Positions 42,634 to 63,604 of a stretch of DNA of 64,000 bases are shown piece by piece. Each line of letters opens with the position of its first letter. The first letter of the stretch is position 1. The stretch is taken from the NCBI GenBank assembly GCA_023410875.1, contig JAEYPH010000039.1, positions 9,919 through 73,918 on the forward strand, in the 5' to 3' direction. Below the pieces are notes generated by a model that made no database searches, had not been told where the DNA came from, and saw only the letters and a program-made list of their open reading frames with translations. Source of the stretch: Bacillota bacterium (GTDB lineage: Bacteria > Bacillota > Clostridia > Christensenellales > UMGS416). The position numbers and the translations under genes are program-made.

Positions 42634-42648
42634 GGGGAAGCGACGACG

Positions 42649-43554: not shown

Positions 43555-43620
43555 AAAAAACAATCATTTCTCTAGCTTTGCTAGGGTTTTGAGCTTAAAC
43601 TTAATAACATTGAACATTGG

Positions 43621-45101: not shown

Positions 45102-45131
45102 AAGGCGTAACGCCTCCTTTTTGAAAGGCAC

Positions 45132-45163
45132 GGGAGAGGTCAACGCGAAAGCGGACCTCTCCC
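45132..45163 (+). terminator. Intercistronic hairpin after the SBP gene (attenuator or stabiliser)
   Basis: The sequence is gggagaggtc-(12 nt)-gacctctccc. A weaker aggcg/cgcct + TTTTT element precedes it at 45102-45122. Confidence 0.45.
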
Positions 45164-45192
45164 GGCGCGCTTTCGCTTATGAGAGAGAGGAT

Positions 45193-46098: not shown

Positions 46099-46099
46099 C

Positions 46100-46939: not shown

Positions 46940-46989
46940 CGGCAAGACCTCCCTTGCCACTGCCGGAGTGGCTGGCCTAACCAAAGACT

Positions 46990-47027
46990 AAAAAAGGAAC
47001 CGCCTCGAGTGAAGCGGTTCCTTTTTT
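46990..47027. terminator. Bidirectional rho-independent terminator between convergent operons
   Basis: The sequence is AAAAAA-ggaaccgc-(10 nt)-gcggttcc-TTTTTT. Confidence 0.8.
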
Positions 47028-47049
47028 GCCGTAACGGCGGTATACAGGA

Positions 47050-48771
47050 TTAGTTGAGGATCTTGGGATCGGCCTTGGCCTGTTCGTTGACGTAGGCGGC
47101 CATGTCTTCATAGCCAGCGGCCTTCATCTTGTTACGGATGTTCTCGATGACAGCCTTGCACTCGTCGTCGGTCTTGGTCAGGAAGGCCTTCTTGAGCTCG
47201 TCGCCGATGTTCAGCGTGGACATCTTCTCATCATAGGTGGGCTTGCCGGTCCAGCTGTCCACAACGTCGTCAACGGTCTTGTATTCGATGAACTTCAGGG
47301 GGTTGATCTCACGGGCCTTCACATAGCCGGCCTCGTTGTAGTCAGCGTCCCAGCCCTTGCTGAAGCTCGGGTCGGCGCCGATGAACTGGCCGCCAACGCC
47401 GAAGCCCATCAGGTTCCACGCGGTGGAGTCACCCTTGCGGGTCTTGTCGGCTTCTTCGGTGTACTTGGGCACGCCGTTGTCCATGGTGTAGGTCTGGCCT
47501 TCGATACCAAACTTGGACAGGATCAGGCCTTCGTCGGAGTTCAGGTAATCGATGAAAGCCAACGCCTTCTCGGGGGTCTTGATCTGCTTGGAGAAGAAGA
47601 CGACCGGGGTGCCGGTGCGGCCAATGCGCTCAACCTGAGAGGGGACGCCGCCCTGCATGTCCAGGATGGGGCCCAGGGGCACAAAGGTCATCTCGGGATT
47701 GGTGGTCATCAGAGTGCTCTGGAAAAAGCCATACTGGTTGGGATAGTGGCAGCCGAACACCGCGACGCGGCCGGTGACCATCTTTTCCTTGCCCTGCGTG
47801 TCGGTCTGAGTGAAGCACTCGGCGTCCATCAGGCCTTCGGCAACCAGCTTGCGCATGTAGAGGGCCCTATCAACATAAGCCTGGGTGAACACGTCATTGA
47901 CGAGGGTGCCGTCGGCCTGCTTGGCCCAGCCGGTCACGCCGCCGTTGTTGAAGCCCTTGAGGAACTGGCCATAGTCCCAGCCGTTGTGCCAGGTGCCGCC
48001 GGGGATGACGGGCTTGCCGTTGATGTCGGTGAAGCTGCCTTCCTTGATCTTCTTGAGCAGGTCATAGACTGCATCCTGCGTCGTCACGGATTCGGGGGTG
48101 ATGCCCAGCTTCTCCAGGATGTCCTTGCGGGCGAATAGGTTGTAGGCCCAGTCACGGACGTCTTCCTTGCCGCGGCCGGTCTGGGTGGGAATGACATAGA
48201 TCTCGCCGTTGTAATCTTTGTGGTTGACGTCCTTGTCCAGATACTTCTGGGAGATGACGCCCACTTCATACAGGCGGTTGATGTTGGGATACTTGCCGCT
48301 GTCCAGATAGGACTTCAGGGGCAGAAGCAGGCCCTGCACGCCGGCGTTCTTGATCAGTTCGCCTTCGCCGCCGGGATCGGTGCTCCAGTGAGGGCCGTTG
48401 GTCATGTCGGGCAGATCGCCGGAGGCGAACACGGTGGCGAGCTTTTCACGCTCGGAGCTGGTGATCGTCTCGACCTTCAGAGCGACGCCGGTCTTGGCCG
48501 TTATAGCCTGGGCAACGACGCCCTTGTCCCAACCGTCCGGGAAAGCGGCGGCACCGCCGTTCCAGTCCATCAGGAAGGAGTAGGTGGTGACTTCGGCTGC
48601 GGGTGCGGTAGAGGGTTCAACCGCGGTGGTGGGAGCCTCAGCAGAGGGGGTGGCTTCGGGGGCGGCGGTGGTGGCCGCAGCGGACGAGGCCGGGTTGGCA
48701 GGGGTTCCGCAGGCGGTCAATGATGCAATCATCATGCCGACCACCAGCAGAACGAGCAACTTGCTCTTCAT
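47050..48771 (-). CDS. Extracellular solute-binding lipoprotein (large LplA-like type)
   Basis: 573 aa. The signal peptide MKSKLLVLLVVGMMIASLTACGT carries a lipobox and is followed by an Ala/Thr/Pro linker. Confidence 0.85.
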   Translation of the reverse strand: MKSKLLVLLVVGMMIASLTACGTPANPASSAAATTAAPEATPSAEAPTTAVEPSTAPAAEVTTYSFLMDWNGGAAAFPDGWDKGVVAQAITAKTGVALKVETITSSEREKLATVFASGDLPDMTNGPHWSTDPGGEGELIKNAGVQGLLLPLKSYLDSGKYPNINRLYEVGVISQKYLDKDVNHKDYNGEIYVIPTQTGRGKEDVRDWAYNLFARKDILEKLGITPESVTTQDAVYDLLKKIKEGSFTDINGKPVIPGGTWHNGWDYGQFLKGFNNGGVTGWAKQADGTLVNDVFTQAYVDRALYMRKLVAEGLMDAECFTQTDTQGKEKMVTGRVAVFGCHYPNQYGFFQSTLMTTNPEMTFVPLGPILDMQGGVPSQVERIGRTGTPVVFFSKQIKTPEKALAFIDYLNSDEGLILSKFGIEGQTYTMDNGVPKYTEEADKTRKGDSTAWNLMGFGVGGQFIGADPSFSKGWDADYNEAGYVKAREINPLKFIEYKTVDDVVDSWTGKPTYDEKMSTLNIGDELKKAFLTKTDDECKAVIENIRNKMKAAGYEDMAAYVNEQAKADPKILN

Positions 48772-48818
48772 GGGGGGTCCTCCTTTTTATTGATCTCCTT
48801 TTGTATCTCGACCAAGGA

Positions 48819-49778
48819 TCATTCCTTGATGGAGCCGATCATGACACCCTTAACGAAGTATTTCTGCAGGAACGGATAAATGCAGATAATCGGAAGGGTC
48901 AGTATGATGAGGAAGGCCATCTTCAGCGATTCCGGCGTCGTGTTGCGGGCGTTTGCGCCCATCAGCACCTCGTTAATTTGTCCCTTGCCGCCGGTGGAGG
49001 TCGTGGAGTTCTCGAACACGGCCTGGCTCAGCAGGTCGTTGAGCAACGTGGCGGCGGGGAAGAGCTCGCGCTTGCGGGGCACGAAGTAGGCGCCGGTAAA
49101 CCAATCGTTCCAGTTGCCCACGCCGACGAACAGTGCGATGGTGGCCATGGCCGGTATCGACAGCGGGAAGATGATTCTGAAGAAAATCCCTAACTCGCTG
49201 CAACCATCCAGTCGTGCGGACTCATTAAGGCTTTCCGGTATCGTGTAGAAGAATGTGCGCAGTATGATCGCGTTGAAGAAGCTGTAGACGCCGGGCACCA
49301 CGTAGACCCAGAAGTTGTTGAGCAGGCCCAGCTGGCGGAACATGATGTACGTGGGGATCAGACCGCCGGAAAACAGCGTGGTGAAGTAAAAGTAGAAGAT
49401 CAACGCCGAGCGGCCGGGCAGGTCGCGCTTGGTCAGCGCGTAGGCCATCAACGCTGTGAAGAAACAAGACAGCACGATGGACAGCACCGTTCGCCCGACG
49501 GAAATTGAAAAGGCCGAGAAGATCAGCGGGTTCGTGAAGGCCTTGGTGTAGTTCTCCAAGGAGAACACGCGAGGTAGGAAGTAGATGCCGCCTTTCAGGG
49601 CGTCTAGGCCGGAGTTGAAGGACAGGATCAGGCAGTACCAGAAGGGGTACAGCGTCACGATAGCCAACGAGATCAGCAGCAAATGATTGACTGATTGCCC
49701 GACCTTGTATGCTGTGGACGTTCTGACCTTAAAGGGCTTGTTCTTTGATATATGCAACGGTGCACGATCGGTCGTCAT
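48819..49778 (-). CDS. Carbohydrate ABC transporter permease (LplC-like)
   Basis: 319-aa multi-TM ORF with EAA loop LNESARLDGCSELGIFFRIIFP. Confidence 0.9.
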   Translation of the reverse strand: MTTDRAPLHISKNKPFKVRTSTAYKVGQSVNHLLLISLAIVTLYPFWYCLILSFNSGLDALKGGIYFLPRVFSLENYTKAFTNPLIFSAFSISVGRTVLSIVLSCFFTALMAYALTKRDLPGRSALIFYFYFTTLFSGGLIPTYIMFRQLGLLNNFWVYVVPGVYSFFNAIILRTFFYTIPESLNESARLDGCSELGIFFRIIFPLSIPAMATIALFVGVGNWNDWFTGAYFVPRKRELFPAATLLNDLLSQAVFENSTTSTGGKGQINEVLMGANARNTTPESLKMAFLIILTLPIICIYPFLQKYFVKGVMIGSIKE

Positions 49779-49849
49779 TTTTTTCGCATTCCTTTCCTAG
49801 CAGCCAGCAAGTGTTTAAAAAACCACCGGCTTTTTAAACGATCGCTCCT

Positions 49850-50800
49850 TTACCACAGAGAGATCTCGGTCACCTTTTTGGATGTGTAGTTGGCGCCTAT
49901 GACCAGAGCCAAGCTGAGCACGCTGCGGAAAAGGCCCATGGCTGTGGCGTAGTCGAACTGGTTCATATTCAGACCGCGCTTGAGCACGTAGGTGTCGATA
50001 ACCTCGGAAACGTCAAAGGTCGGCGGCGTTTGCAACAGCAGGATCTGCTCCATGTTGGAGCCGAACAGGCCGCCAACGCTCAGCAGGAACATGATGCCGA
50101 TGGTGGGCGTAATGCCAGGCAGCGTGATGTGCTGCAGCTTCTGGGCGCCGTTGGCGCCGTCGATCTCGGCGGCTTCATATAGCGTGGGGTCGATGCCGGT
50201 TAACGCCGCCAGATAGATGATGGAACCGTAGCCGATGCCCTTCCACATGTCCGAGAGGACGATGAAAGGCAGGAACAGGTTCTTTTCGCCCAGATAGTAG
50301 ATGGGGTCCAGCCCCATCTGCAGGCGGATATCGTTGAACATGCCGGTGGTGGGAGAGAAGAGCTTATGGATCAGCGCGGCCACGACGACCCAGGACACGA
50401 AGTAGGGCAGGTAGGAGATCGTCTGTATCGTGCGCTTGAAACCGTTGCCGCGCAGGGCGTTGAGCATCAGGGCCAATATGATGGGAGCGGGGAAGTTGAT
50501 GATCAACTTGGTCAAGCTGATGACGACGGTGTTCTTAAGCACCTTGTAGAAGTACGGGTCACTCAGGAAGTCCTGGAAATACCGCAGGCCTACCCAGGGG
50601 CTGAAATACAAGCCCAGGTTGTACTGGAACTTCTTGAACGCAATGACGACGCCGGTCATCGGGTAGTAGCAAAACACCGCATACCATATCACCGCAGGCA
50701 GCAGGAACAGATAGAACGCGGCGTACTTCTGCAGGTTCTTCTGCAGGCTCAACCGGCGCTTGCTTTGGCCGGAGGCGCCTCCCAGGGTCTTTACACTCAT
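49850..50800 (-). CDS. Carbohydrate ABC transporter permease (LplB-like)
   Basis: 316-aa multi-TM ORF with EAA loop YEAAEIDGANGAQKLQHITLP. Confidence 0.9.
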   Translation of the reverse strand: MSVKTLGGASGQSKRRLSLQKNLQKYAAFYLFLLPAVIWYAVFCYYPMTGVVIAFKKFQYNLGLYFSPWVGLRYFQDFLSDPYFYKVLKNTVVISLTKLIINFPAPIILALMLNALRGNGFKRTIQTISYLPYFVSWVVVAALIHKLFSPTTGMFNDIRLQMGLDPIYYLGEKNLFLPFIVLSDMWKGIGYGSIIYLAALTGIDPTLYEAAEIDGANGAQKLQHITLPGITPTIGIMFLLSVGGLFGSNMEQILLLQTPPTFDVSEVIDTYVLKRGLNMNQFDYATAMGLFRSVLSLALVIGANYTSKKVTEISLW

Positions 50801-51185: not shown

Positions 51186-52256
51186 TTAGACCGGGGGCAG
51201 CGTTTTGACGGTGTGGCGCTTTTCCAGCCAGACTTCGTGGTCGATGCTTCGCAGCGGGCGCTTCTCCAGCAGAGCAGCGCTGATCTCATCAACTGCGCTC
51301 TTGCCCATCTGTGCGCTGGGCACATCGATGGCCGTGAAGGGAACGCCGTATACCGGCGAATAGGGATAATCGCCGTACCCCATGATGGACACGTCCTCAT
51401 AGATGCGCAGGCCGTTTTGGAACAGCCATTTGCTCACAGCCATGATGGCCAGACTGGTGTGGCTGCAAATGGCGGTGATGCGGCCGGACAGGATATCCTG
51501 CACGGTGAACCGCTGTAAAAACCCTGAAAGATAGTCATCGCTGCGGGTGAGCATCGTGGTGTCGTACTCGATGCCGGCATCCTTAAGGGCCTGCAAAAAG
51601 CCCTTTTCTCGCCGCTCAATGGTCAACACCGGGCGGGCACTGGAGACATTGGCGATGTATCTGTGGCCCTTTTTGGCCAAATAGGAGCCCATTTGGTAGC
51701 CGCCATCATAGTCGTCGCAGGTGATGCACGGCAAACCCATCTTTTTGGCGGGGTTGTCTATGAGGAGGATGGGCAGGCCGGCATCCTGCAGGCAGGCCAT
51801 CGCGCGGTAATCCTCGTCGGTTTCGTATCCGCAGGTGATGGCAGCGATGTAATCGCTGAGCTTCTCTCGGGCAATCTGCTCGTAGCGCTGCTGCGAGGCG
51901 GTGGTGTTGAGTATTTTATAGTCGAAGCCCAGCAGGTTGGCCTGCTCCACGCAGCCCATGGTGACGCGGAACAGAAAGCCGTCGCCCATCTCGTGGGGCA
52001 GAGCGATGAGCAGCTTGCCCCGGTAGGGCGTCTCATCCTGGGTGGCCATAACCAAGCCCTTGCCCGCCACGCGGCGGATCAGGCCTATACGAATCAGGTC
52101 TTCCACAGCCTTGCGGGCGGTGGGGCGGCTGACGCCAAAACGGCGGGCATAGCCCACCTCGGTGTCCAGCGCCTCGCCGGGCTTCTTGTCGCGGGCGTCG
52201 GCCTCGATGAGTTCCCGCACCTGCTCGTAAATCTTCTTCGTGTATCCATTATCCAT
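51186..52256 (-). CDS. AraR-like regulator (GntR-type winged HTH + LacI/PBP-type sugar-binding domain)
   Basis: 356 aa. The N-terminal GntR HTH is EVGYARRFGVSRPTARKAVEDLIRIGLIRRVAGKGLVMA. The C-terminal two-thirds has the periplasmic-binding-fold pattern. Confidence 0.8.
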   Translation of the reverse strand: MDNGYTKKIYEQVRELIEADARDKKPGEALDTEVGYARRFGVSRPTARKAVEDLIRIGLIRRVAGKGLVMATQDETPYRGKLLIALPHEMGDGFLFRVTMGCVEQANLLGFDYKILNTTASQQRYEQIAREKLSDYIAAITCGYETDEDYRAMACLQDAGLPILLIDNPAKKMGLPCITCDDYDGGYQMGSYLAKKGHRYIANVSSARPVLTIERREKGFLQALKDAGIEYDTTMLTRSDDYLSGFLQRFTVQDILSGRITAICSHTSLAIMAVSKWLFQNGLRIYEDVSIMGYGDYPYSPVYGVPFTAIDVPSAQMGKSAVDEISAALLEKRPLRSIDHEVWLEKRHTVKTLPPV

Positions 52257-52369
52257 GCGAAGACCAACTTCTCTTCATAAAATCGTTCATATCGAAACAG
52301 GCGGTTCGTCCCGAAACCCGTCGAAATTTTTTATGGAAACCTTACCCCACTCTTATGAATTTATTGAAT

Positions 52370-52398
52370 ATTATATATGCTGTAAGGCGAAATGACAA
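52370..52398 (-). promoter_or_regulatory. SigA-type promoter of the regulator gene
   Basis: On the minus strand: TTGTCA (52393-52398), 17-nt spacer, TATAAT (52370-52375). Confidence 0.6.
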
Positions 52399-52443
52399 CA
52401 ATTGTGAAATAAAAACATGTAATATTATTTGCAAGTCGGACTG

Positions 52444-52470
52444 TTTACATGTAAAAAAATATGGTATGAT
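52444..52470 (+). promoter_or_regulatory. Extended -10 promoter of the GH38 operon, overlapped by the palindrome TTTACATGTAAA
   Basis: TTTACA lies at 52444-52449, followed by a 15-nt spacer containing TG at 52462-52463, then TATGAT at 52465-52470. The perfect 12-bp palindrome at 52444-52455 covers the -35. A related half-site, AAACATGTAAT, lies at about 52413-52423. Confidence 0.5.
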
Positions 52471-52537
52471 GGTGCCGATGTGCGAGCCTTGGCGGCAACC
52501 AGCCGCCGCATGGCCGCGTAAAAAGGATGGAGAGCCT

Positions 52538-55435
52538 ATGCAAAGCCTTGTGCAGAAATTCACCGCCGTGAAGACCAGCGTCGGTGGGAACCGCGAAAAG
52601 CGGCATTATGAAGATACGTTCGGAATGCCCCGGGAAGAAGCCAACCGCATCACGATGCCCAACCGCTGGCAGCGCCGGCTGCTGGGCCAATTGGAGTTCG
52701 CCCTGAAGCTTTCCGAATCACTGAATGGTCGGTTTGACGACTGTCTGCATGAAACATTGGACTGCTTGCTGGAGCAGGTCGCCGATCAAGGCGCGCTGAC
52801 CCGCGACGACGTGGAACGCGCCGAGGCGAAGCTTTCGCCGTTGCAAGCCGCCGCAAAGGAATACCGGCTGATACTGGCAGGCCATGCCCACATCGACATG
52901 AACTGGATGTGGTCTTATCACGAGACCGTGGCCGCCACGCTGGAAACCTTCCGCACGATGCTGACGATCATGGACGAATACCAGGATTTCCACTTCTCCC
53001 AGTCTCAGGCGGCGGTTTATAAAATCGTCGAGGAATACGACCCGGCGCTGATGGAGCGCATCAAGGCCCGTATCGCCGAAGGCCGTTGGGAAGTCACCGC
53101 ATCGGCTTGGGTGGAGACGGACAAGAACATGCCGTCCACGGAGTCCCTGGTGCGCCATATTCTCTATACCAAAAAATACCTTCAGGAGACCTGGGGCGTA
53201 CCCGCCGACAGCCTGGAAGTGGATTTCTCCCCGGACACCTTTGGCCACAGCGCCCATTTGAGCGAGCTGAACGGGCATGGCGGCGTGAAATACTACTACC
53301 ATTGCCGCGGTCTGGACGGCGACAACGTGCTGTATCGCTGGCGCGCGCCCAGCGGCGCGGAGGTGCTTGCCTACCGTGAGCCCTATTGGTACAACAGCGC
53401 CATCACGCCGGTGATTGGCGCGGGCCTCATCGACGTGGCCCGCCGCAGCGGGGGGCTTAAGACCGGGCTGGTGGTATATGGCGTGGGTGACCACGGCGGC
53501 GGCCCCACCCGCCGCGACATCGAGCGCGCCCGAGAAATGCAGTCCTGGCCCATCTTCCCGGTCGTGGAGTTCGGCACCTTCCGCAAATACTTCCAGGCCG
53601 CCGAGAGCGTGCGCGAGAACCTGGAAGTCGTGGACCGCGAACTGAACTTCACCTTCCCCGGCTGTTACACGACCCAGAGCCGCATCAAGATGGGCAACCG
53701 CCGCAGCGAGGCCGCTTTGGCCGACGCCGAAGCCATCAATGCTCTGGCGGCGTCGTTGACCGGCGCCCCCTATCGCCACCGCGCCTATGAGCAGGCCTGG
53801 CAGAAGGTGCTCTTCACCCACTTCCATGACATTCTGACCGGCTCCTGTGTGCAGGACAGCCGCGAGCACGCCATGGGCCTGTTCAGCGAAGCGCAAGCCG
53901 CTGCTCAGTCCTCCCGTCTGATCACCCTGCGCGCCATCACGGCCCGCATCGATTCCTCGTCGCTGCTCAGCGATGAGGACGTGTCGGCCAGCCAATCCGA
54001 AGGGGCCGGCGTCGGGTACGGTATAGGCTATCCCACCCCTGGCGGCTATGGCACCGCTGGCCTTTGCGGCGCGGGGCTGCTGGCCGCTGAGCGCGGCGCC
54101 GGCCTTAAGCGAATCCTGCACATCTTCAACCCCAGCGCCCACCGCCGTGACGCCGTCGTCGAGGTCACCATTTGGGACTGGGTGGGCGACATGTCCCGCA
54201 TCCGCCTGCAAGACGGGCAGGGCAAACAAGCTGATTTCCAGTTGCTAGATAACGATCTGCGTACCTATTGGGATCACAAGTATTTCCGGCTGCTGCTGCG
54301 GGTAGATTTGCCGGCCATGGGTTATGCGACCTATGTGCTGGATGAGGCGGAAATGACCAGCTATCCCGTCTACTATCAGCCGCCGATCCGCACCACCGGC
54401 GCTTTCGACCCCTATGTGCTGGAAAACGAATTCCTGCGGGTGCAGTTGGACGCCGCCACCGCCGAGGTTGTATCCATGGTGGATAAGAAAACCGGCCGTG
54501 AGCTGATCCGCACCGGCGACACCGCCGGCCTGCGCCTGGTGGACACCGAGGCCAAAACGTCCAGCGCCTGGCTCATTGGCCGCTACATCCACACCGAGAA
54601 GGTCAATCGCAACATCAAGATCAACACCCTACCCGCCGGCCCCGTGCGCCGGGGCGTGGAAGTAGAAATCCCCTTCCGCAGCTCCACGGCCAAGCTCAGC
54701 CTGTGGCTGGACCAGGGCTGCCCGGCCTTGCAGGCCGACCTCAAGGTGGACTGGCACGAGATCGCCAAGGGTGATTCCCCCGTGCCGGTGCTGACCTATG
54801 CGGTGCCGCTGCAGGGGGCGCCGGAGCAATATCTTTTCGATGTGCCCGCGGGCGTACAGAGCCGCGGCCCCTATAGCCAGGACGTGCCCGGCTTGCAATA
54901 CGGCGCCGCCGTGGCCGCCGGCCGGGCGCTGGCGCTGGTTTGCGACAGCAAGTACGGCTACCGTGCCGATGGCCAGTCGCTGATCCTGACGCTGATCAAT
55001 GCAGCCAACAGCCCCGACCCGTATCCGGAACGCGGCATTCACACTGTGCGTTTTGCTGTGGCGGTGGCCGACGCATGCCCCAAGGCGTTGGAGGAGCTGG
55101 CTTTTGACCTGAACCGCCTGCCGGCGGCGGTCTCCGAGCGGCCGCACAGCGGCGATTTGCCGCTGGCTGCCTCTTTGCTGGAGTTGGAAGAGGGCGGCTC
55201 CGCGGTGATCAGCGGCATCAAAGCAGCCGAGGACGGCAAGGGCGTCATCGTGCGCCTGTATAACCCCATCGGTACATCCACAACGGCGCGGCTGGCGCTG
55301 ATGAAGGCTCCCCGCGCCGCCCACACGGTGGACGCGATGGAACAGCCCGCAGCGGGCAGCGCAGCCGTGGTCGGCAACACTGTAACCCTGCAACTGGGAC
55401 CCAACCGCCTGCAGGCGGTCCGGATAGAGTTCTAA
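52538..55435 (+). CDS. GH38 alpha-mannosidase (cytoplasmic type)
   Basis: Starts at ATG 52538 (MQSLVQKF) after GGATGGAGAG. The track start at 52355 lies in the AT-rich promoter. Motifs are GHAHIDMNWMW, FSPDTFGHS and GVGDHGGGPT. About 965 aa. Confidence 0.85.
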   Translation: MQSLVQKFTAVKTSVGGNREKRHYEDTFGMPREEANRITMPNRWQRRLLGQLEFALKLSESLNGRFDDCLHETLDCLLEQVADQGALTRDDVERAEAKLSPLQAAAKEYRLILAGHAHIDMNWMWSYHETVAATLETFRTMLTIMDEYQDFHFSQSQAAVYKIVEEYDPALMERIKARIAEGRWEVTASAWVETDKNMPSTESLVRHILYTKKYLQETWGVPADSLEVDFSPDTFGHSAHLSELNGHGGVKYYYHCRGLDGDNVLYRWRAPSGAEVLAYREPYWYNSAITPVIGAGLIDVARRSGGLKTGLVVYGVGDHGGGPTRRDIERAREMQSWPIFPVVEFGTFRKYFQAAESVRENLEVVDRELNFTFPGCYTTQSRIKMGNRRSEAALADAEAINALAASLTGAPYRHRAYEQAWQKVLFTHFHDILTGSCVQDSREHAMGLFSEAQAAAQSSRLITLRAITARIDSSSLLSDEDVSASQSEGAGVGYGIGYPTPGGYGTAGLCGAGLLAAERGAGLKRILHIFNPSAHRRDAVVEVTIWDWVGDMSRIRLQDGQGKQADFQLLDNDLRTYWDHKYFRLLLRVDLPAMGYATYVLDEAEMTSYPVYYQPPIRTTGAFDPYVLENEFLRVQLDAATAEVVSMVDKKTGRELIRTGDTAGLRLVDTEAKTSSAWLIGRYIHTEKVNRNIKINTLPAGPVRRGVEVEIPFRSSTAKLSLWLDQGCPALQADLKVDWHEIAKGDSPVPVLTYAVPLQGAPEQYLFDVPAGVQSRGPYSQDVPGLQYGAAVAAGRALALVCDSKYGYRADGQSLILTLINAANSPDPYPERGIHTVRFAVAVADACPKALEELAFDLNRLPAAVSERPHSGDLPLAASLLELEEGGSAVISGIKAAEDGKGVIVRLYNPIGTSTTARLALMKAPRAAHTVDAMEQPAAGSAAVVGNTVTLQLGPNRLQAVRIEF

Positions 55436-55468: not shown

Positions 55469-56563
55469 ATGGACAGAAAGCTGCGCATTGGTTTCATCGG
55501 CACCGGTGGAATCGCCCATGCCCACATGGCCGCTTACTCCAAGTTCGACGATGTGGAGATCGTCGGTGGCGCCGACATCGTGCCCGGCAAGGCTCGGGCT
55601 TTCCTGGACAAGTGGAACCTCCCCAATGCCCAGGCCTTCGAGAGCGCCAAAGAGCTCATCGAAAACGTCGAGATGGACGGCGTCACCGTTTGCACCTACA
55701 ACAAGACTCACGCCGAGTGCGTCGTCGCCGCTTTCGAGGCCGGCCTGCACGTGCAGTGTGAGAAACCCATGAGCTTTACGCTGCAGGAAGCAGTCGATAT
55801 GGTGCGCGCCTCCCGCAAGGCCAACAAAATGTTGACCATCGGCTTCCAGCCCCGCTATGACCGCATGCGCCAGAAGGTTGACGATATCATCAATTCCGGC
55901 GCACTGGGCAAGGTGTATTACATCCAGAGCGGCGGCGGCCGCCGCCGGGGTATCCCGGGCAGCACCTTTGTGCAGGAAGAAAAGGCGGGCTTCGGCTGCC
56001 TGGGCGACATCGGCTGCTATTCCATCGACGAGTGCCTGCATGCCGTGCACTATCCCAAGCCGCTGACGGTCTCCGCTGTGGCGACGGATTACTTTGGCAC
56101 CAACCCCAAATATTGGGCCGACGCCGAGAACTTTCATGTGGACGACTTCTCCGTGGCTTTTGTGCGCTGCGAGGGTGACTTGACCTTCGTATTCAAGCAG
56201 AGTTGGGCCATGCACGCCGACAGCCTGGGCGACACGCTGTGGCTGGGCACCGAGGGCGCCATCAAGGTCTGCAACGGCTTTGACTATGCCAACAAGCCCT
56301 CCCGCGTCATGTATTTCACCGACGTCAACGGCATGCAGGTGGACAGCTTCGTATTGCCCAGCCACGCCTTTGACGCTTACTCCGGCCCCGGCGGCATCGA
56401 CATCTTTGCCGCCAAGGTGCGCGCCTACTGCGATGCCATCATCAATGGCGATCCCGCACCGATCCCCGGCGAGGAGATCCTGATGAACCAGGCCATCTGC
56501 GATGGCATCTATCGTTCCGCCAAGCTCAAGAAGGAAGTTGAGATCATCATCCCGAAGATTTAA
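55469..56563 (+). CDS. Gfo/Idh/MocA-family NAD(P)-dependent oxidoreductase
   Basis: 364 aa. The N-terminal Rossmann motif is LRIGFIGTGGIAHAH, with the EKP motif (VQCEKPMS). Confidence 0.85.
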   Translation: MDRKLRIGFIGTGGIAHAHMAAYSKFDDVEIVGGADIVPGKARAFLDKWNLPNAQAFESAKELIENVEMDGVTVCTYNKTHAECVVAAFEAGLHVQCEKPMSFTLQEAVDMVRASRKANKMLTIGFQPRYDRMRQKVDDIINSGALGKVYYIQSGGGRRRGIPGSTFVQEEKAGFGCLGDIGCYSIDECLHAVHYPKPLTVSAVATDYFGTNPKYWADAENFHVDDFSVAFVRCEGDLTFVFKQSWAMHADSLGDTLWLGTEGAIKVCNGFDYANKPSRVMYFTDVNGMQVDSFVLPSHAFDAYSGPGGIDIFAAKVRAYCDAIINGDPAPIPGEEILMNQAICDGIYRSAKLKKEVEIIIPKI

Positions 56564-57590: not shown

Positions 57591-58481
57591 ATGACCGGGA
57601 CTATCTATAACATCCAGCGCTTCTCCATCCACGACGGACCGGGCATTCGCACCACGGTGTTCTTCAAGGGTTGCAACCTGCGATGCCTGTGGTGCCACAA
57701 CCCCGAATCCATCTCCCGGCGGCCGGAAGTGGAATTCTACCCGGAGCGCTGCATCGGGTGTGGGCGGTGCTTTGACGCCTGCCCCACCCATGCTCATATT
57801 CTGGACGAGACCGGCGCACACCGCATCGACCGCAGCCTCTGCGAGGGATGCCTGGCGTGCGCCGGCGTCTGCTATGCCGAAGCGCTGGTGGGCGTGGGCC
57901 GCCAGGTGAGCGCGGAAGAGCTGCTGGCCTCCATCCTGACCGACCGGCCCTACTATGAGCAATCCGGCGGCGGCGTCACGTTCTCCGGTGGCGAGTGCAT
58001 GGCGCAGGCGAATTTCCTAAGCGAGATACTGGCCGCCTGCCGGCGCGAGGGCATCCACACCGCCGTGGACACCGCGGGCAACGTGCCCTGGGAGAGCTTC
58101 GAGAAGGTGTTGGAGCACACGGATCTCTTCCTCTATGACCTGAAGGCCGCCGACAGCGAAACCCACCGGCGTCTGACCGGCGCGGGAAACGAACGCATCC
58201 TGAGCAACCTGAAAAACTTGAGCGTGGCAAGAAAACGCATCATCGTACGCATACCCTATATACCGGGGTGCAACGACGGTGAGATTGAGGCCATGGCGAA
58301 TATTCTGAAGGCTTTAGCCGTGGAGCGCGTGGAAGTGATGCCCTATCACCGCCTGGGGGAGGGCAAATACGCCGCGCTGGGCATCACTGCCCAAACCGCC
58401 ATCACCATCCCCACGCCTCAGGAAACCCAGGCCGCCGTGGAACTGCTGCGCAGCCACGGCATCAACGCCCATCCGGCATGA
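57591..58481 (+). CDS. Glycyl-radical enzyme activating enzyme (radical SAM, with two auxiliary 4Fe-4S motifs)
   Basis: The N-terminus is IQRFSIHDGPGIRTTVFFKGCNLRCLWCHNPES (CX3CX2C). Auxiliary cluster motifs are CIGCGRCFDACP and CEGCLACAGVC. GGVTFSGGE is also present. Confidence 0.9.
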   Translation: MTGTIYNIQRFSIHDGPGIRTTVFFKGCNLRCLWCHNPESISRRPEVEFYPERCIGCGRCFDACPTHAHILDETGAHRIDRSLCEGCLACAGVCYAEALVGVGRQVSAEELLASILTDRPYYEQSGGGVTFSGGECMAQANFLSEILAACRREGIHTAVDTAGNVPWESFEKVLEHTDLFLYDLKAADSETHRRLTGAGNERILSNLKNLSVARKRIIVRIPYIPGCNDGEIEAMANILKALAVERVEVMPYHRLGEGKYAALGITAQTAITIPTPQETQAAVELLRSHGINAHPA

Positions 58482-58507
58482 CCGAGCATCCAAGGGGGAG
58501 ACGCCTA

Positions 58508-60685
58508 ATGCTGAATACCGAGAGAGCGGCGATGTCGCCGCTGTACGCCGGGCGCATCCAGCGCCTGCATGAAGACAAGATGGCCATCAACGAGGTCAAG
58601 ATCCGTCTGATCGGCCGCGGAAAGATGGACTTCGACGACTGGGGATTCGTCTATTACCCGGATTTCAAATTCACCGCGCCCAGCGACCGAGAAGATGGCA
58701 TCATCTGCGGATATGTACCCATCGGGCGCACGCTGCGCAAGTTTTTCCAGGAGATTCCCAAGTATGTGAACCCCAACAGCGCGCTGGCCGGCGCGTGGAT
58801 AAGCCCCATCGGCAACTATGTGACCATCCGCATGCCGCCGGAACTGATTCCGCAGGATCTGGTGCCCATCTGGAAGGAATATGACACGCGTCCGGGCTTT
58901 GGGGCCATGAACCACTGCGCGCCGGACATGAACATCGGCCTGCAGCTGGGTTGGGGCGGCCTCCTCCGGAAGATTCGCTACCATCGCGACTTCAACGCGC
59001 CGGCGGACACCGCCTTCTACGACGGCGAGGAGCAGGTCGTGCTGGGCATGCAGGAATGGATCGCCGCGCTGGCGGCCCAGTGCCGGGCCATGGCCGCGGA
59101 CGAGGCCGACGCCGACACCCGCGCCAACCTGTTGGAAATGGCTGAAATGAACGAGTGGCTCGTGGACAACCCGCCGCGCACGCTGCGGGAGGCTTGCCAG
59201 TTCCTGGCCCACTTCCAGACGCTGGACCGCACCTATTTCGTGGGCGGCGCGCTGCAGCAGTTGGACGAATTGCTGCGGCCCTGGTATGAGCGCGATATCG
59301 CCGAAGGCCGCGTGACCGACGAGCAGGCCGTATGGCACCTGGCCAGCCTGTTCTTCAACGACACCCACTATTCGCAGATCGCGGGCCTGACCGCCGACGG
59401 CTCCCGGGACATGACCAGCCGGTTAAGCTTCCTAATTCTGGATGCGCTGCACCTGCTGAAGATCCCTGTGAACATGGCCGTGCGCGTGCACGACGGCGTG
59501 AACCCGGAGCTGCTGCGCCGCAGCCTGGAATACATCCTGGAGGATGGCTCCGGCGTGGACTACTCATGCAATGTAGGCTGTGAGCAGGGCTATGCCGCCA
59601 ACGGCTATCCGCTGGAGCTGGCCCGGCAGCGGGCCAAGGTGGGCTGCAACTGGACCGCCCTGCCCGGCCGCGAATACCCGCTGCAGGACGTGACCCGTGC
59701 CAACCTGGCCTTTGCGCTGACCCACGCGCTGGAGGACGTGCGCGCCAACCCTTCGCTGGAGGCGCTGTTTGAGCGCTTCGCCCATCACACCGGCGTCATC
59801 GTGGACAGCATCAAGGCGGGTTACGACCGCCACTATGAGCTCGTGGGCGTCAACACGCCGGAAATGGTGTACAACCTCTTCATGCACGGCCCGGTGGAGC
59901 GGGGCATCAACTGCTCCCAGGGCGGCGTGGACATCCTGAATTTCAACATCGACGGCGTGGCGCTGGCCACGGTGGCCGATTCCTTGGCCGCCATCCAGCA
60001 GCGCGTTGTGGACGAAGGCCGCCTGAGCTGGGCGCAGCTCTACGAGGCGCTGGACCGCAACTACGAGGGCATGGAGGACGTGCGGCTGATGCTTCGGAAC
60101 ATCCCGCGCTTTGGCAGCCCCAATTCCCTGGCGGAAAGCTGGGCGCTGCGGGTGCGCGATTGCTTCGTGCACGCGTGCAAGCGCAGTGGCACGCCCAAGT
60201 ACAATCTGCCCATCCTGCCGGGGATGTTCTCCCATGGCACGATAATGGAGCTGGGCTCCAACCTTGGCGCCACGCCCAACGGCCGGCGCTCCGGCGAGGC
60301 CATCAGCCACTCCAACGAGCCCGACCCGGGCTTTGCCCGGGGGCTGGATACGTTCTCGCCGTCGCTCAAGGCCACGGCTGTGGCCAAGGCGCAGCCGGGG
60401 TACGGCAACTCGGCGCCGCTGCACCTGGACATCGACACCGAGATGCTGGCCCACGCCGGCGGCATTGAGGCGCTGATCGCGCTGATACACGCCCACAACC
60501 ACATGGGCGGCACGCTGATCAACCTGAACTGCCTGACCAAGGAGCGCTTGCTCAAGGCCCACGAGAACCCCGACCGCTACCCGGACCTGCTGGTCCGCGT
60601 AACAGGGTATTCGGCGTTTTTCGCGTCGCTGTCCAAGGAGTATAGGCAGCAGATTATAGACAGATTCTTGTCCAAAGCGGGCTGA
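58508..60685 (+). CDS. Glycyl-radical enzyme (PFL-fold), divergent clade of unknown specificity
   Basis: The C-terminal radical motif is LLVRVTGYSAFFASL (Gly codon 60605-60607). Other landmarks are PRTLREACQF and ATPNGRRSGEAISHS. The Cys loop is VGCNWTALPG (Cys codon 59645-59647). ATG 58508 follows AAGGGGGAG by 7 nt. An upstream in-frame ATG at 58478 overlaps the activase stop. Confidence 0.85.
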   Translation: MLNTERAAMSPLYAGRIQRLHEDKMAINEVKIRLIGRGKMDFDDWGFVYYPDFKFTAPSDREDGIICGYVPIGRTLRKFFQEIPKYVNPNSALAGAWISPIGNYVTIRMPPELIPQDLVPIWKEYDTRPGFGAMNHCAPDMNIGLQLGWGGLLRKIRYHRDFNAPADTAFYDGEEQVVLGMQEWIAALAAQCRAMAADEADADTRANLLEMAEMNEWLVDNPPRTLREACQFLAHFQTLDRTYFVGGALQQLDELLRPWYERDIAEGRVTDEQAVWHLASLFFNDTHYSQIAGLTADGSRDMTSRLSFLILDALHLLKIPVNMAVRVHDGVNPELLRRSLEYILEDGSGVDYSCNVGCEQGYAANGYPLELARQRAKVGCNWTALPGREYPLQDVTRANLAFALTHALEDVRANPSLEALFERFAHHTGVIVDSIKAGYDRHYELVGVNTPEMVYNLFMHGPVERGINCSQGGVDILNFNIDGVALATVADSLAAIQQRVVDEGRLSWAQLYEALDRNYEGMEDVRLMLRNIPRFGSPNSLAESWALRVRDCFVHACKRSGTPKYNLPILPGMFSHGTIMELGSNLGATPNGRRSGEAISHSNEPDPGFARGLDTFSPSLKATAVAKAQPGYGNSAPLHLDIDTEMLAHAGGIEALIALIHAHNHMGGTLINLNCLTKERLLKAHENPDRYPDLLVRVTGYSAFFASLSKEYRQQIIDRFLSKAG

Positions 60686-60738: not shown

Positions 60739-61764
60739 CTATCTCATAGTAAGCTCCGCATCGCCGGGCAAGGGTTTCAGCGGTGCGAAGGGCAGCGTCT
60801 GATACCAGTAGGCCACGGAGGTGTAATCGTCGTATCGCGGCCCGGTCCAGCCCAGATTGTCGATGGTCATGCGGAACCCGGTATTGAAGTGGATGGGGTC
60901 CTGCACGTGCCAACGGTACAGCAGGAAGCGCTGCTGGCCGTTGTATACCTCCCGGTTGCTGCCAAGTATGGCGTACATGCCCACATAATGCCCGCTGTAG
61001 GTCTGGTATTTGTTGAGTATGATGTCGTTGCCGAAACCGTAGGAGCCGCAAAAATAGTCCTCCGTGCCGGTGTAATGGATGGAAGGATACTCGTCGTCAT
61101 CCAGGTACATCCTGGCCTCTCCCTCCACCCAGCAGGTGTTGTTGCCGTTCATGCCCGCAGCCAGGCTGACGCCGACGAACTGCCCCTTGCCGCGGATGCC
61201 GTCTATGATCGTATAGGAGCGTCCCCTGGAGACCGGGTGTTCCTGTCGGTAAGAGGCGTGGAAGTACCCGATGTTGTGCGGCAGGTCGCATTTGCAGCCG
61301 GTAATGATGTAGTAAAGGTCGTGGGCTTCCTGGCCGCGGTTTTCCACGGTGATGCGGCAGTGCCGCAGGAAAGGCATCTCCCAGTAGCAGTTGAGACCCC
61401 GGCCGGGGGCCACCAGCACCATGGCGGAATTCAGAGAAGGATAGTTGCCGTTGACGTCTTTAAAGTTTTCATCATAAGCGCAGCCGAAGAAAGCCGACAG
61501 GGGAGATTCCACCGAAGGGTACTCATTGTCCTCCCAATAAAACCGCAGTATGAAGTTGTGGCCGGTATAGCCGGTAAACCAGATGCTCTGTATCATGCCC
61601 GGTCCGTCGGTATCCACCAAGGTGACCGTTTCTCCCGGATGGATGGTGACCGTGGGGCGTAACTTGGTGCAATCACCGCCGCGGGAACCGCCCGCCCGTT
61701 GGCCCGTGGGGTTCTCCGCGGAAAATGCAAAGGTCTGCGCGTCGGAAATGAGATAGTTCTTCAT
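60739..61764 (-). CDS. DUF2961 family protein (GH172-like), second paralog
   Basis: 341 aa. Motifs are FSAENPTGQRAGGSRGG..TIHPGETVTLVDTDGPGMIQSIWFT, WVEGEARMYLDDDEYPSIHYTGTEDYF and VAYWYQ. Confidence 0.75.
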   Translation of the reverse strand: MKNYLISDAQTFAFSAENPTGQRAGGSRGGDCTKLRPTVTIHPGETVTLVDTDGPGMIQSIWFTGYTGHNFILRFYWEDNEYPSVESPLSAFFGCAYDENFKDVNGNYPSLNSAMVLVAPGRGLNCYWEMPFLRHCRITVENRGQEAHDLYYIITGCKCDLPHNIGYFHASYRQEHPVSRGRSYTIIDGIRGKGQFVGVSLAAGMNGNNTCWVEGEARMYLDDDEYPSIHYTGTEDYFCGSYGFGNDIILNKYQTYSGHYVGMYAILGSNREVYNGQQRFLLYRWHVQDPIHFNTGFRMTIDNLGWTGPRYDDYTSVAYWYQTLPFAPLKPLPGDAELTMR

Positions 61765-62047: not shown

Positions 62048-63604
62048 ATGGCCATGCGGGTGGGGATCTACTGCCGATTAAGCGACGAGGACCACGACAA
62101 GCTGAACCCCGCCGCCGACAGCGAGAGCATACAGAACCAGAAGAGCATGCTGGCGCGCCACGCCGTGGAGCAGGGGTGGGACATCTGTGATATCTATTGC
62201 GACGAAGACTATGCCGGCAGCGACCGGGAGCGCCCGGCCTTCAACCGCCTGCTCTGCGACGCCCAGCGGGGCCGGCTGGACATTGTGCTGTGCAAAACCC
62301 AGTCGCGCTTCTCCCGCGAGCTGGAGATCGTGGAGAAATATGTCCACGGTCTGTTCCCCGAATGGGGCGTGCGCTTCATCGGCCTGGTGGACAACGCCGA
62401 CACGGCGGTAAAGGGCAACAAAAAGAGCCGCCAGATCAACGGCCTGATCAACGAGTGGTATCTGGAAGACCTTTCGGACAACATCCGCGCCGTGCTGGAC
62501 AACAAGCGCTTGAAAGGCCAGTACATCGGCGCCTTCGCGCCTTACGGATACCGCAAGGCCGACGACGACCGCAACCGTCTGGTCATCGACCCGCCGGCGG
62601 CGCAGGTCGTGCGGCGCATATACCAGATGTATTTGCAGGGCACGGGGCTGTGCCGGATCGCGCAGACATTGACACAGGACGGCGTACCCAACCCCACTGC
62701 TTACAAGCGCCGGCTGGGGTTCAATGTGGGCGGCGGCCAACTCTGCCAACGCGGCGACGCGTGGACCACGGCCACGGTGCTGCGCATGCTGCGCAACCCG
62801 GTGTATTTGGGTACGCTGGCCCAGGGCAAGCAACGCAAGGTCAGCTACAAGAGCAAACGCCGCAAGACCGTGGCCAAAGAGCACTGGTTCGTCGTGGAGA
62901 ACGCCCACGAGGCCATCATCGAACGGGACACCTGGCAGGCCGTGGAGGCGGCGCTGGACCGCAATCACCGGCCTCAGAAGAGCGGAGAGGTGCACCCTCT
63001 GGCGGGCAAGGTGTTCTGCGGCGGGTGCGGCCGGGCGCTGCACGCCTACACCGTGCGGGGCAGGCGCTATTGCCGCTGCCCCGGCGCGCTGAAGGGCGGG
63101 CCGTGCGCCGGCGCCAGCATCCCCTTGCATGCGCTGGAGGAACGGCTGCTGGGCGAGCTCAACGCTGTGGCCGGGGAACTCTTCGACGAAGCCATGCTGT
63201 CGGACACCGTGACGCCGGGCGACACACAGGAGCGTCAACGCCAGGCGCTGGCCGGTGAGCTGGCCCAGCTGGACGCCAAGCTTTCGCAGTTGGAGCGGGC
63301 ACAGTATTCCCTCTATCTGGACAAGGCCAAGGGTATCCTCGCCGAAGAACTCTTCCTGCAGCTAAGCCAGAGGATGGGCAATGAGCGGCAGGCTCTGCTG
63401 GAACACCGGGGAGCCGTGGGGCGCAGCCTGAAAGCCTTGGATGAACAGATGCGCCAGGGTTCCGGCAAAGCGGATCTTATTGGGCGATACCGGCGGTTCG
63501 GCGCGCTGACCCGGGAGCTGGCGCTGCAGTTCGTACAGCGTGTGGAGGTGTTCCACCGCGACCGGGCGGGGAGCACGCCGGTACGTATCCATTGGTCATT
63601 TTGA
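62048..63604 (+). CDS. Large serine recombinase (resolvase domain + recombinase domain + zinc ribbon + coiled coil)
   Basis: 518 aa. The N-terminus VGIYCRLSDED contains the catalytic Ser context. Other landmarks are INEWYLEDLSDNIR and Zn-ribbon CGGCGRALHAY...YCRCPG. The tail is conserved with the remnant at 21694..22152. Confidence 0.9.
   Translation: MAMRVGIYCRLSDEDHDKLNPAADSESIQNQKSMLARHAVEQGWDICDIYCDEDYAGSDRERPAFNRLLCDAQRGRLDIVLCKTQSRFSRELEIVEKYVHGLFPEWGVRFIGLVDNADTAVKGNKKSRQINGLINEWYLEDLSDNIRAVLDNKRLKGQYIGAFAPYGYRKADDDRNRLVIDPPAAQVVRRIYQMYLQGTGLCRIAQTLTQDGVPNPTAYKRRLGFNVGGGQLCQRGDAWTTATVLRMLRNPVYLGTLAQGKQRKVSYKSKRRKTVAKEHWFVVENAHEAIIERDTWQAVEAALDRNHRPQKSGEVHPLAGKVFCGGCGRALHAYTVRGRRYCRCPGALKGGPCAGASIPLHALEERLLGELNAVAGELFDEAMLSDTVTPGDTQERQRQALAGELAQLDAKLSQLERAQYSLYLDKAKGILAEELFLQLSQRMGNERQALLEHRGAVGRSLKALDEQMRQGSGKADLIGRYRRFGALTRELALQFVQRVEVFHRDRAGSTPVRIHWSF

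Follow-up and report, generated by a model that had tools for sequence, protein, structure and literature searches.

The 64,000-nucleotide stretch of Bacillota DNA considered here (contig JAEYPH010000039.1; hereafter the window, whose positions are used for all coordinates unless a locus is named) carries the gene of a glycyl-radical enzyme (GRE) whose cysteine loop reads G-C-N-W in place of the canonical G-C-x-E. The gene is the last of a plus-strand operon in which it is preceded, in this order, by genes for an alpha-mannosidase of glycoside hydrolase family 38 (GH38), two oxidoreductases of the Gfo/Idh/MocA family (Gfo1 and Gfo2) and a GRE activase. The enzyme is very probably active and, with its non-canonical loop, a member of an uncharacterised clade, here called the C-x-W clade, which is large, deep and widespread and comprises members in at least the Bacillota and the Bacteroidota. 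Being a GRE, the locus is not categorically new; it represents a variant that is distinct, deep and widespread and that has a coherent alpha-mannoside context. Its substrate is very probably new to GRE biochemistry and its reaction type perhaps so. The best overall explanation, to which we would give an even chance, is that the C-x-W GRE uses radical chemistry to transform a neutral sugar derived from a mannoside.

GREs are the main means by which strict anaerobes perform chemically hard steps without oxygen, and each newly assigned GRE clade has revealed a gut or environmental pathway, as for the route from choline to trimethylamine and for hydroxyproline, isethionate and anhydro-sugars. The C-x-W clade systematically lacks the residue held to be mechanistically central to the GREs that cleave C-O, C-N and C-S bonds, and its pairing with two unrelated alpha-mannosidase families and with DgpA-like dehydrogenases gives a short and testable list of substrates. 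Cultured hosts amenable to genetics are Anaerocolumna sp. AGMB13025, Flammeovirga kamogawensis YS10 and Persicobacter psychrovividus.

The Cysteine Loop and Active-Site Residues

The cysteine loop reads NGYPLELARQRAKV-GCNWTALPG, the residues directly before G-C-N-W being ARQRAKV, with the Cys codon TGC at 59645-59647 (residues are numbered on the 725-residue protein that begins at ATG 58508). In single-sequence and profile alignments made with HMMER, G379-C380-N-W382...P386-G387 falls on the G-C-V-E...P-G of solved GREs, the matched loops being those of Escherichia coli PflD (Cys431/Glu433; vvGCVElsiPGRtygl), glycerol dehydratase (GDH; Cys433/Glu435) and CutC. The loop that an initial annotation of this DNA had singled out as unusual thus lies exactly on the G-C-x-E of these three enzymes. 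The rule by which it was judged, C-x-E in eliminases and isomerases and C-C in pyruvate formate-lyase (PFL) and TdcE, is upheld by a recent review, according to which the C-O, C-N and C-S eliminases and three isomerases all keep C-x-E and hold the substrate by a hydrogen bond to its Glu, while two Cys on the loop are limited to PFL and TdcE (Imrich et al., 2026; PMC13450708).

Residue conservation was read from an alignment of 41 diverse relatives sharing 23-86% identity. Trp382 stands at the canonical Glu position in 41 of 41 and Cys380 is the sole invariant Cys, so that the usual base and a second Cys are both missing from the loop, as had been claimed. Cys380 is the predicted thiyl-radical Cys, since it is invariant, sits at a hairpin tip and aligns with the catalytic Cys of known GREs, and no canonical loop was found elsewhere in the protein. 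Two other candidates for the loop were rejected: VGC358EQGY, 22 residues before Cys380, lies in a predicted helix and its Cys358 is present in 20 of the 41 relatives, and 'GCVERG' variants are seen in some homologues at position 462, which is Pro in the window GRE and Cys in 6 of 41.

The missing catalytic Glu could be taken as the mark of a decayed or non-catalytic paralogue, either a pseudo-enzyme or a spare radical carrier, all the more as the strict glycyl-radical fingerprint fails once. When the fingerprint RVxG[FWY]x6-8[FL]x4Qx2[IV]x2R (Imrich et al., 2026; PMC13450708) is compared with RVTGYSAFFASLSKEYRQQIIDR, there is a single mismatch, Q to R, whereas the RVxG[Y] core and the terminal R are kept. 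However, this deviation is common to the window GRE and all 120 of its close homologues, the open reading frame (ORF) is full-length, a dedicated activase adjoins the GRE in most loci, and strong purifying selection has kept Cys, Gly and Trp invariant over hundreds of sequences. By this conservation pattern a dead paralogue is effectively refuted, and its probability is negligible.

W149, R241, W382, E389, Y390, E452, L457, P637 and T699 are conserved in the clade and not in 32 classical GCxE GREs, while the residues common to both sets include H136, C380, R593 and G700. Glu389 and Tyr390 are candidates, as far as sequence can tell, for a relocated acid/base or hydrogen-bond partner within the active site. 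His136 is the equivalent of GDH His164, which is proposed to protonate the leaving group (PMC13450708); the window GRE has thus kept both the His and the Asp (Asp394) that are the partners of the Glu in GDH. The GDH pocket residues His281 and Ser282 align with Gly and Ala in the window GRE, so that its pocket is probably larger.

These residues bear on an alternative in which the chemistry is that of a known 1,2-eliminase, namely a dehydratase of diols or polyols whose substrate is a small molecule, for instance glycerol, 1,2-propanediol or a sugar alcohol, with the base moved to Asp394, Glu389 or Glu452; novelty would then be confined to the substrate or to where the residues sit. Such a view draws on the best structural and profile matches (propanediol dehydratase, GDH, PflD and CutC), on the retained equivalents of GDH His164 and Asp447 and on the clade-specific conserved acids Glu389 and Glu452. 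It is at odds with the Gly and Ala at the His281 and Ser282 positions, which suggest a larger substrate, and with the steady association of the enzyme with glycosidases, sugar importers and Gfo sugar dehydrogenases; nor do the microcompartment shell or aldehyde dehydrogenase/reductase genes that typify small-diol GREs appear among the Pfam-annotated neighbours, where no systematic search for them was made. Altogether a relocated base in an otherwise familiar dehydratase seems very unlikely.

The Enzyme, Its Gene and Its Activase

Both Pfam domains expected of a GRE exceed their cut-offs, PFL-like (PF02901) with 236 bits and an E-value of 1e-69 and Gly_radical (PF01228) with 47.6 bits and 3e-12, which places the assignment well above chance. 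The motifs and ORFs on which the GRE had been recognised, and the Gly codon at 60605-60607, were all recovered at their positions, with PRTLREACQF at residue 233, ATPNGRRSGEAISHS at residue 598, GGTLINLNCL at residue 677 and RVTGYSAFF at residue 707 of a 735-residue ORF, and the estimate of about 320 residues between Cys and radical Gly agrees with a spacing of exactly 320. An AlphaFold2 model of the protein (pLDDT 93.9, pTM 0.93) flanks Cys380 and Gly700 each with short paired strands, as expected of the finger loops of the ten-stranded GRE barrel. Foldseek searches with this model gave TMq values of 0.75-0.85 to about 50 GRE chains at 17-21% identity, and no family stands out among them. The enzyme had also been described as shorter than characterised GREs, which is true to a modest degree, the 725 residues comparing with 759 in PFL and 765-900 in the other enzymes considered.

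The 735-residue reading begins at ATG 58478, where an ATGA at 58478-58481 had been noted as an overlap with the stop codon of the activase gene. The overlap is present in the sequence, while ATG 58478 is probably not the real start of the GRE. A Shine-Dalgarno-like AAGGGGGAG is placed 7 nt before ATG 58508, and in a comparison of the N-termini of 16 homologues with at least 65% identity, 15 start at or within 3 residues of the Met at 58508 (14 with ML, MI or MM and one with MN). Departures from this start are seen in P0121, which is 52% identical, and in P0056, which is three residues longer (P numbers denote homologous proteins and L numbers collected GRE loci). From the spacing of AAGGGGGAG and the homologue N-termini, the true start is almost certainly ATG 58508, giving a protein of 725 residues; the start at 58478 with ATGA coupling was rejected for the same reasons, and the activase and GRE genes are accordingly close-packed and not overlapping.

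That an activase gene lies directly upstream, as proposed in the initial annotation, is borne out by a score of 350 bits against the NCBIfam GRE-activase model TIGR02494 (cut-off 174) and by the presence of CNLRCLWC (CX3CX2C) together with two ferredoxin-like motifs, CIGCGRC and CEGCLAC. In one homologue, P0129 (1052 aa), an activase (Radical_SAM and Fer4, residues ~16-230) is joined to the N-terminus of a GCNW GRE, by a natural fusion or else through a gene call that reads across two genes.

Relation to Known GRE Families

The window GRE is about 30% identical in sequence to every characterised GRE, a value that drops to 17-21% in structure alignments, and the closest PDB entries in a HMMER comparison are likewise only about 30% identical. 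Its scores against the NCBIfam equivalogs lie 5-10 times under the cut-offs; among equivalog and subfamily models, TIGR01774 (PFL2-3) gives 198.8 against 678.2 bits, HpsG 173 against 1000, HypD 154 against 1100 and CutC 149 against 1050. Membership in any NCBIfam equivalog and identity with a solved structure were therefore both rejected, as none matched, and high-identity clustering with a characterised clade, which would have undone the assignment, is not observed. Public annotation of clade members goes no further than 'pyruvate formate lyase family protein', and the literature consulted, including GRE papers of 2024-2026 and the 2026 review (PMC13450708), yielded no description of a C-x-W clade. 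The suggestion of an uncharacterised GRE clade is thus sustained by the GCNW loop in 120 of 120 close homologues and by the lack of an equivalog, structure or paper that matches.

The absence of the loop Glu would be less puzzling if the enzyme acted on C-C bonds, through PFL-like thiyl addition to, or beta-scission of, a keto-sugar that the Gfo enzymes would supply, or through radical epimerisation or isomerisation, since the Glu would then be unneeded, the coupled dehydrogenases would install the carbonyl, and PFL and TdcE function without C-x-E (PMC13450708). Against this stand the lack of a second conserved Cys, the retention of the eliminase His164 and Asp447 equivalents, the absence of conserved CoA-handling genes or small accessory subunits adjoining the GRE, and a score of 49.8 bits against the PFL model TIGR01255, whose cut-off is 994. 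C-C chemistry of this kind is accordingly given only a slim chance.

The C-x-W Clade and Its Distribution

In a collection of 5.8 billion proteins, the 120 closest homologues share 62-97% identity with the window GRE and measure 695-764 residues, mostly 719-738, and all 120 carry both GCNW and RVTGYSAFF. Their hosts are assigned to Clostridia, Oscillospiraceae, Lachnospiraceae, Christensenellales, Anaerocolumna and Herbinix. When 1.84 billion cluster representatives were searched without a filter, full-length relatives at 25-52% identity were added, which read GC[N/H/Q/F/G]W, rarely V-C-N-W or A-C-P-W, keep RVTG[YF] and have a Cys-Gly spacing of ~309-325. Ordinary GCxE enzymes rank below these relatives, with a spacing of ~333 and at most ~30% identity.

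A metagenome scan matched at least 600 stretches, and 531 among the matches listed encode a relative of the GRE (tblastn E <= 1e-3). The Cys loops of these 531 were read in part. Among 107 loci collected and read, 101 have a C-x-W loop, with GCNW in 65, GCHW in 35 and GCSW in 1, and the remaining 6 are truncated loci in which the motif is unreadable. Some of the retained contigs carry the label human gut metagenome. Outside the Bacillota, tblastn of plasmid and chromid records located a GCNW GRE with its activase in two cultured Bacteroidota, Flammeovirga kamogawensis YS10 and Persicobacter psychrovividus (37% identity, 98% coverage). The clade can be defined by G-C-[NHQFSG]-W, RVTG[YF], a Cys-Gly spacing of ~317-325, a length of ~700-760 residues and the residues W149, R241, E389, Y390 and E452, all of which are found in the window GRE.

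Gene Neighbourhoods

Dereplication at 90% GRE identity left 84 loci, with at least 2 kb of upstream sequence in 60 and at least 2 kb of downstream sequence in 55. Within 6 kb of the GRE, an activase is encoded in 49 of the 84, two ABC permease families in 18 and 15, Gfo/Idh/MocA proteins in 13 (26 ORFs; 7 of these loci have at least two) and GH38 in 9; AraC regulators follow with 7, GntR-PBP regulators with 5 and FGGY kinases with 4. The Gfo/Idh/MocA linkage occurs in the GCNW and GCHW subclades alike. For GH38, a rough estimate sets an expected chance occurrence below 1% per 14-kb stretch against an observed ~15%. In L037, L057, L042 and L056 the GH38 gene is co-directional with the GRE and begins 36-155 bp downstream of it, and the contig group of L037 and L057 includes contigs labelled human gut metagenome (L035).

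Orthologues of both oxidoreductases adjoin the GRE in L007, L011, L023 and L026, at 74-81% identity for Gfo1 and 50-69% for Gfo2, and the gene order in the Lachnospiraceae loci L007, L023, L024 and L026 is AraC regulator, activase, GRE, Gfo2, Gfo1. Between the high-GC Bacillota window and the Lachnospiraceae loci L007, L023 and L026, Gfo1 is 79-81%, the GRE 71-73% and Gfo2 50-51% identical, a pattern that suggests unusually strong constraint on Gfo1 or recent transfer. In the Anaerocolumna-type loci L007 and L024, a 1119-aa DUF5107/TPR protein and a GH4 enzyme are encoded upstream of the AraC-activase-GRE-Gfo-Gfo series (~543-5388 in L024); GH4 enzymes are NAD-dependent and oxidise before they eliminate, which adds one more neighbour whose chemistry involves keto-sugars.

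In Flammeovirga kamogawensis and Persicobacter psychrovividus the activase-GRE pair adjoins a gene of GH47 (Pfam 392-395 bits), an alpha-1,2-mannosidase family unrelated to GH38, and the 14-kb flanks also hold GH130 and SusC/D or Na+:solute symporter genes. Since the two families are unrelated, a second phylum supplies the same activity next to the GRE from genes that are not homologous, and such a replacement of one mannosidase by another argues for a functional link far more strongly than synteny by itself.

The mannosidase might nonetheless matter for what it releases along with mannose, and the GRE could act on an aglycone such as myo-inositol or glycerate, or on a sugar that bears an O-methyl group or some other decoration. 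In NCBIfam both Gfo proteins match myo-inositol 2-dehydrogenase best, though far under its cut-off; AP_endonuc_2 (IolE/IolI fold) genes, PfkB genes and a class II aldolase gene lie near some copies; the glycosidase partner families differ between loci; and in 6 dereplicated loci, drawn from the GCNW and the GCHW subclade alike, URO-D genes (PF01208) adjoin the GRE. Some members of the URO-D family are methyltransferases, and a link to methylated sugars or to corrinoid methyl transfer is our guess. By contrast, Gfo1 scores 161 bits against DgpA and ~50 bits against inositol dehydrogenases, no single aglycone-specific gene is conserved across loci, and the activity that recurs in two phyla is alpha-mannosidase, whose sole constant product is mannose. 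An aglycone as the substrate is thus regarded as unlikely.

Several further neighbours recur. A 136-145-aa protein, cupin-like by eye and without a Pfam match, is encoded at 16137-16547 in L107, 16145-16564 in L108 and 6730-7167 in L110; it is kept beside the activase-GRE pair in the GCNW-M subclade, with 36% identity between the Bacteroidota copies and that of a 2.27-Mb metagenome contig, and in L110 two Gfo genes lie directly upstream of it, the activase and the GRE. A conserved protein of 760-806 aa (~4825-7116 in L033-L039 and L057, 3722-6142 in L010, 2911-5325 in L049), for which no Pfam, NCBIfam or PDB sequence match was found, directly precedes activase-GRE-GH38 in L033-L039 and L057 and lies upstream of GH38-activase-GRE in L010, with 62% identity between them; it may represent an undescribed glycoside-active family. 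A search of the window for homologues of these two partners found neither. Neighbour 'families' of 203, 115, 204 and 257 aa without a Pfam match were discarded, being shadow ORFs on the strand opposite to the activase, Gfo and GH38 genes, and the neighbourhoods of the most distant C-x-W relatives, P0158 and P0123, proved uninformative.

Proposed Function

Under the preferred explanation, a radical step on a mannoside-derived sugar, an alpha-mannoside would be imported unphosphorylated and cut in the cytoplasm by GH38, as homology and context suggest. No phosphotransferase system (PTS) and no microcompartment shell genes occur among the Pfam-annotated neighbours inspected, for which no systematic search was made; ABC, SusC/D and Na+:solute symporter importers together with the lack of an annotated PTS point to a free neutral sugar. 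By the mechanism of the family, the activase would make the Gly700 radical and thereby the Cys380 thiyl radical, which would take an H atom from mannose or from a derivative (keto, anhydro or reduced) that the two NAD-dependent Gfo enzymes would supply. Since the i+2 side chain of C-x-E enzymes points at the substrate, Trp382 should line the pocket and the sugar may pack against it, an aromatic platform being a classic way of binding pyranose rings. A C-O bond might then be broken by dehydration or by a ring-opening isomerisation of the PflD/YbiW type, with His136 perhaps protonating the leaving oxygen and with Asp394, Glu389/Tyr390 or a carbonyl installed on the substrate by Gfo conceivably replacing the missing loop Glu. 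Return of the H atom would give a deoxy-keto product that the second Gfo or a kinase could lead into central metabolism. A neutral sugar derived from a mannoside is slightly favoured as the substrate, and the specific mechanism of C-O cleavage is doubtful.

A number of observations weigh against this explanation. Mannosidase or Gfo linkage is found in only ~15-22% of adequately flanked loci, and loci with GH38 often have no Gfo and vice versa, so that a single fixed pathway is not demonstrated. Many activase-GRE pairs stand alone or beside GH2 with ThuA, GH78, GH106, GH32, GH4 or URO-D genes, and other neighbours, such as AP_endonuc_2 and GH32 with PfkB, hint at alternative or broader substrates. 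Mannose already has an ordinary kinase/isomerase route, which leaves the need for a radical step unexplained. All characterised GREs that cleave C-O, C-N or C-S bonds use the loop Glu, and its absence disfavours the transfer of their mechanism; moreover, the orientation of Trp382, Glu389, Tyr390 and Glu452 is extrapolated from the loop geometry of homologues.

It is a tentative proposal that the clade forms a new functional class of GREs, devoted to the non-phosphorylative radical catabolism of mannose or keto- or anhydro-mannose from alpha-mannans and high-mannose glycans. Equally tentative is this proposal taken jointly with its remaining elements, in which the canonical loop Glu would go unused, the sugar would be stacked on the invariant Trp, and the route would be widespread among anaerobes from the gut (the human gut included), termites, digesters, sediments and marine habitats. 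If true, it would add a class to the GREs and a branch to the anaerobic catabolism of mannans and N-glycans, a counterpart to the recent PflD/YbiW 'anhydroglycolysis' pathway.

The Operon and Its Surroundings in the Window

The features of the locus are collected in Table 1. The GH38 ORF opens at 52355, and the likely start is ATG 52538, which follows the ribosome-binding site AGGATGGAG; the first ~61 codons of the ORF (52355-52540) look non-coding, being AT-rich and rich in Asn, Ile, Cys and Lys codons. Scans for promoters and terminators between 52 and 62 kb gave nothing above the shuffled background except a minus-strand site upstream of the divergent regulator gene. Regulators of the same GntR/PBP type are encoded in L004, L011, L014, L025, L042, L044 and L056, and homologues of the ABC importer, 48-54% identical, adjoin the GRE in L010 and L011. 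Upstream of the operon, the region 36773-50800 contains a sensor histidine kinase gene (36773-39592) and three sugar ABC-transporter gene sets and is thus dense in genes for carbohydrate uptake.

The GH172/DUF2961 gene that converges on the GRE was rejected as a part of the system, since it is absent from L006, which is 97% identical, and from all other loci. L006 keeps the serine recombinase (89% identity), and an MFS transporter gene and an HTH gene replace the GH172 gene there, which suggests a variable or mobile junction directly after the GRE operon.

Table 1. Features of the GRE locus, with positions in the window unless a locus is named.
Feature	Position	Strand	Basis
GRE of the C-x-W clade, 725 aa	58508..60685	+	Pfam, AlphaFold, Foldseek (TM 0.80-0.85 to GRE structures), homologues, ribosome-binding site
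Longer reading of the GRE ORF from ATG 58478, 735 aa	58478-60685	+	ORF call
Shine-Dalgarno-like AAGGGGGAG, 7 nt before ATG 58508	58492..58500	+	Read from sequence
Cys loop core, Cys380-Asn381-Trp382	59645..59653	+	Aligned to GCVE loops; Cys380 and Trp382 invariant in 41/41
His136, equivalent of GDH His164	58913..58915	+	Profile alignment to 1r8w; kept in 38/41
Glu389-Tyr390, clade-specific, just past the Cys loop	59672..59677	+	39/41 in the clade; rare in 32 classical GCxE GREs
Asp394, equivalent of GDH Asp447 and PflD Asp445 (Cys+14)	59687..59689	+	Alignments; invariant in 41/41
Gly700 codon GGG, glycyl-radical site in RVTGY	60605..60607	+	Sequence; beta-hairpin tip in the AlphaFold model
GRE-activating radical-SAM enzyme, 296 aa	57591..58481	+	TIGR02494, Pfam Radical_SAM and Fer4, motifs
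GH38 alpha-mannosidase, Ams1-like	52538..55435	+	Four GH38 Pfam domains; PDB Ams1 and bacterial GH38
Gfo1, Gfo/Idh/MocA oxidoreductase, 364 aa, DgpA-like	55469..56563	+	PDB 7xr9, 161 bits over full length
Gfo2, Gfo/Idh/MocA oxidoreductase, 326 aa	56603..57583	+	Pfam; PDB 6z3b/6z3c and E. coli YjhC 6o15, ~80 bits
GntR-HTH/PBP-fold sugar-responsive regulator, divergent from the GH38-GRE operon	51186..52256	-	Pfam
Sigma-70-like promoter site, 11 of 12, within the GH38 ORF lead stretch, upstream of the regulator	52398-52370	-	
Probable sugar ABC importer, two permeases and putative binding protein	47050..50800	-	Pfam, tblastn, position
ABC permease	48819-49778	-	Pfam BPD_transp_1
ABC permease	49850-50800	-	53-54% tblastn identity to L010/L011 permease genes, no Pfam scan
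Putative binding protein, 573 aa, no Pfam match	47050-48771	-	Position and 34-43% homologues in L010 and L011
GH172/DUF2961 gene, convergent on the GRE	60739-61764	-	Best PDB match 8ic8, exo-alpha-D-arabinofuranosidase
Large serine recombinase, beyond the GH172 gene	62048-63604	+	
URO-D neighbours in other loci	L001 14760-16848; L002 6964-8034; L054, L066, L075, L079; P0123 context		

Comparison With Known Systems

The two oxidoreductases recall systems in which a sugar hydroxyl is turned into a ketone so that a C-glycosidic or anhydro bond can be cleaved: DgpA oxidises the C3 position of C-glucosides, and 2,7-anhydro-sialic acid undergoes transient oxidation by NanOx and YjhC. The entries 6z3b and 6z3c, deposited merely as 'Gfo/Idh/MocA family oxidoreductase', are presumably RgNanOx. 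The similarity to these systems is remote, only ~80 bits in the case of Gfo2, and they process the keto-sugar by TIM-barrel lyases or hydratases, whereas here a GRE adjoins the dehydrogenases.

Precedents for GRE function without C-x-E exist in phenylacetate decarboxylase (PAD) and the X-succinate synthases, the latter working without this motif and the former apparently having Gln484 at Cys+2. To our knowledge, and as far as the review extends, no PAD or X-succinate synthase has Trp at the loop Glu position. Gln484 is essential in PAD (PMC13450708). These enzymes differ from the window GRE in their aromatic or hydrocarbon substrates and in their gene contexts, and X-succinate synthase structures are among its weakest PDB matches in a profile search. 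In addition, X-succinate synthases need small accessory subunits, which are not seen beside GREs of the window type, as no conserved small ORF adjoins the GRE in the Bacillota loci, where the neighbours are carbohydrate genes.

CutC, HypD, IslA and HpsG share the PFL2-type fold and an activase with the window GRE and give comparable HMMER scores, whereas theirs is a C-x-E whose Glu is hydrogen-bonded to the substrate (PMC13450708). Glycerol and 1,2-propanediol dehydratase (1r8w, 5i2g) are the best Foldseek matches, with TMq 0.82-0.85, and are served by the same PFLE_PFLC type of activase with ferredoxin-like inserts; of the GDH residues, His164 and Asp447 have kept equivalents, while Trp382 stands in the place of Glu435 and Gly/Ala in that of His281/Ser282, at a structural identity of 18-20%. 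These dehydratases also differ in that microcompartment or aldehyde-processing genes do not appear among the Pfam-annotated neighbours of the window GRE, for which, as said, no systematic search was made.

The closest parallel is with PflD and YbiW (8yjo, 8id0, 8id7), the top profile match at 413 bits and a TM of ~0.81, whose Cys loop aligns with that of the window GRE residue by residue and whose Asp at Cys+14 is kept. PflD and YbiW are the GRE isomerases of the 'anhydroglycolysis' pathway, which cleave a C-O bond in a hexose-derived ring, and in them Glu433 (PflD) or Glu443 (YbiW) of the C-x-E deprotonates the C2-OH (PMC13450708). The window GRE has Trp in place of this Glu, is ~30% identical to them (18-21% by structure) and 40-100 residues shorter, and has a Cys-Gly spacing of 320 rather than ~333. 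Their substrates are 6-phosphates, whereas the context of the window GRE suggests unphosphorylated sugars.

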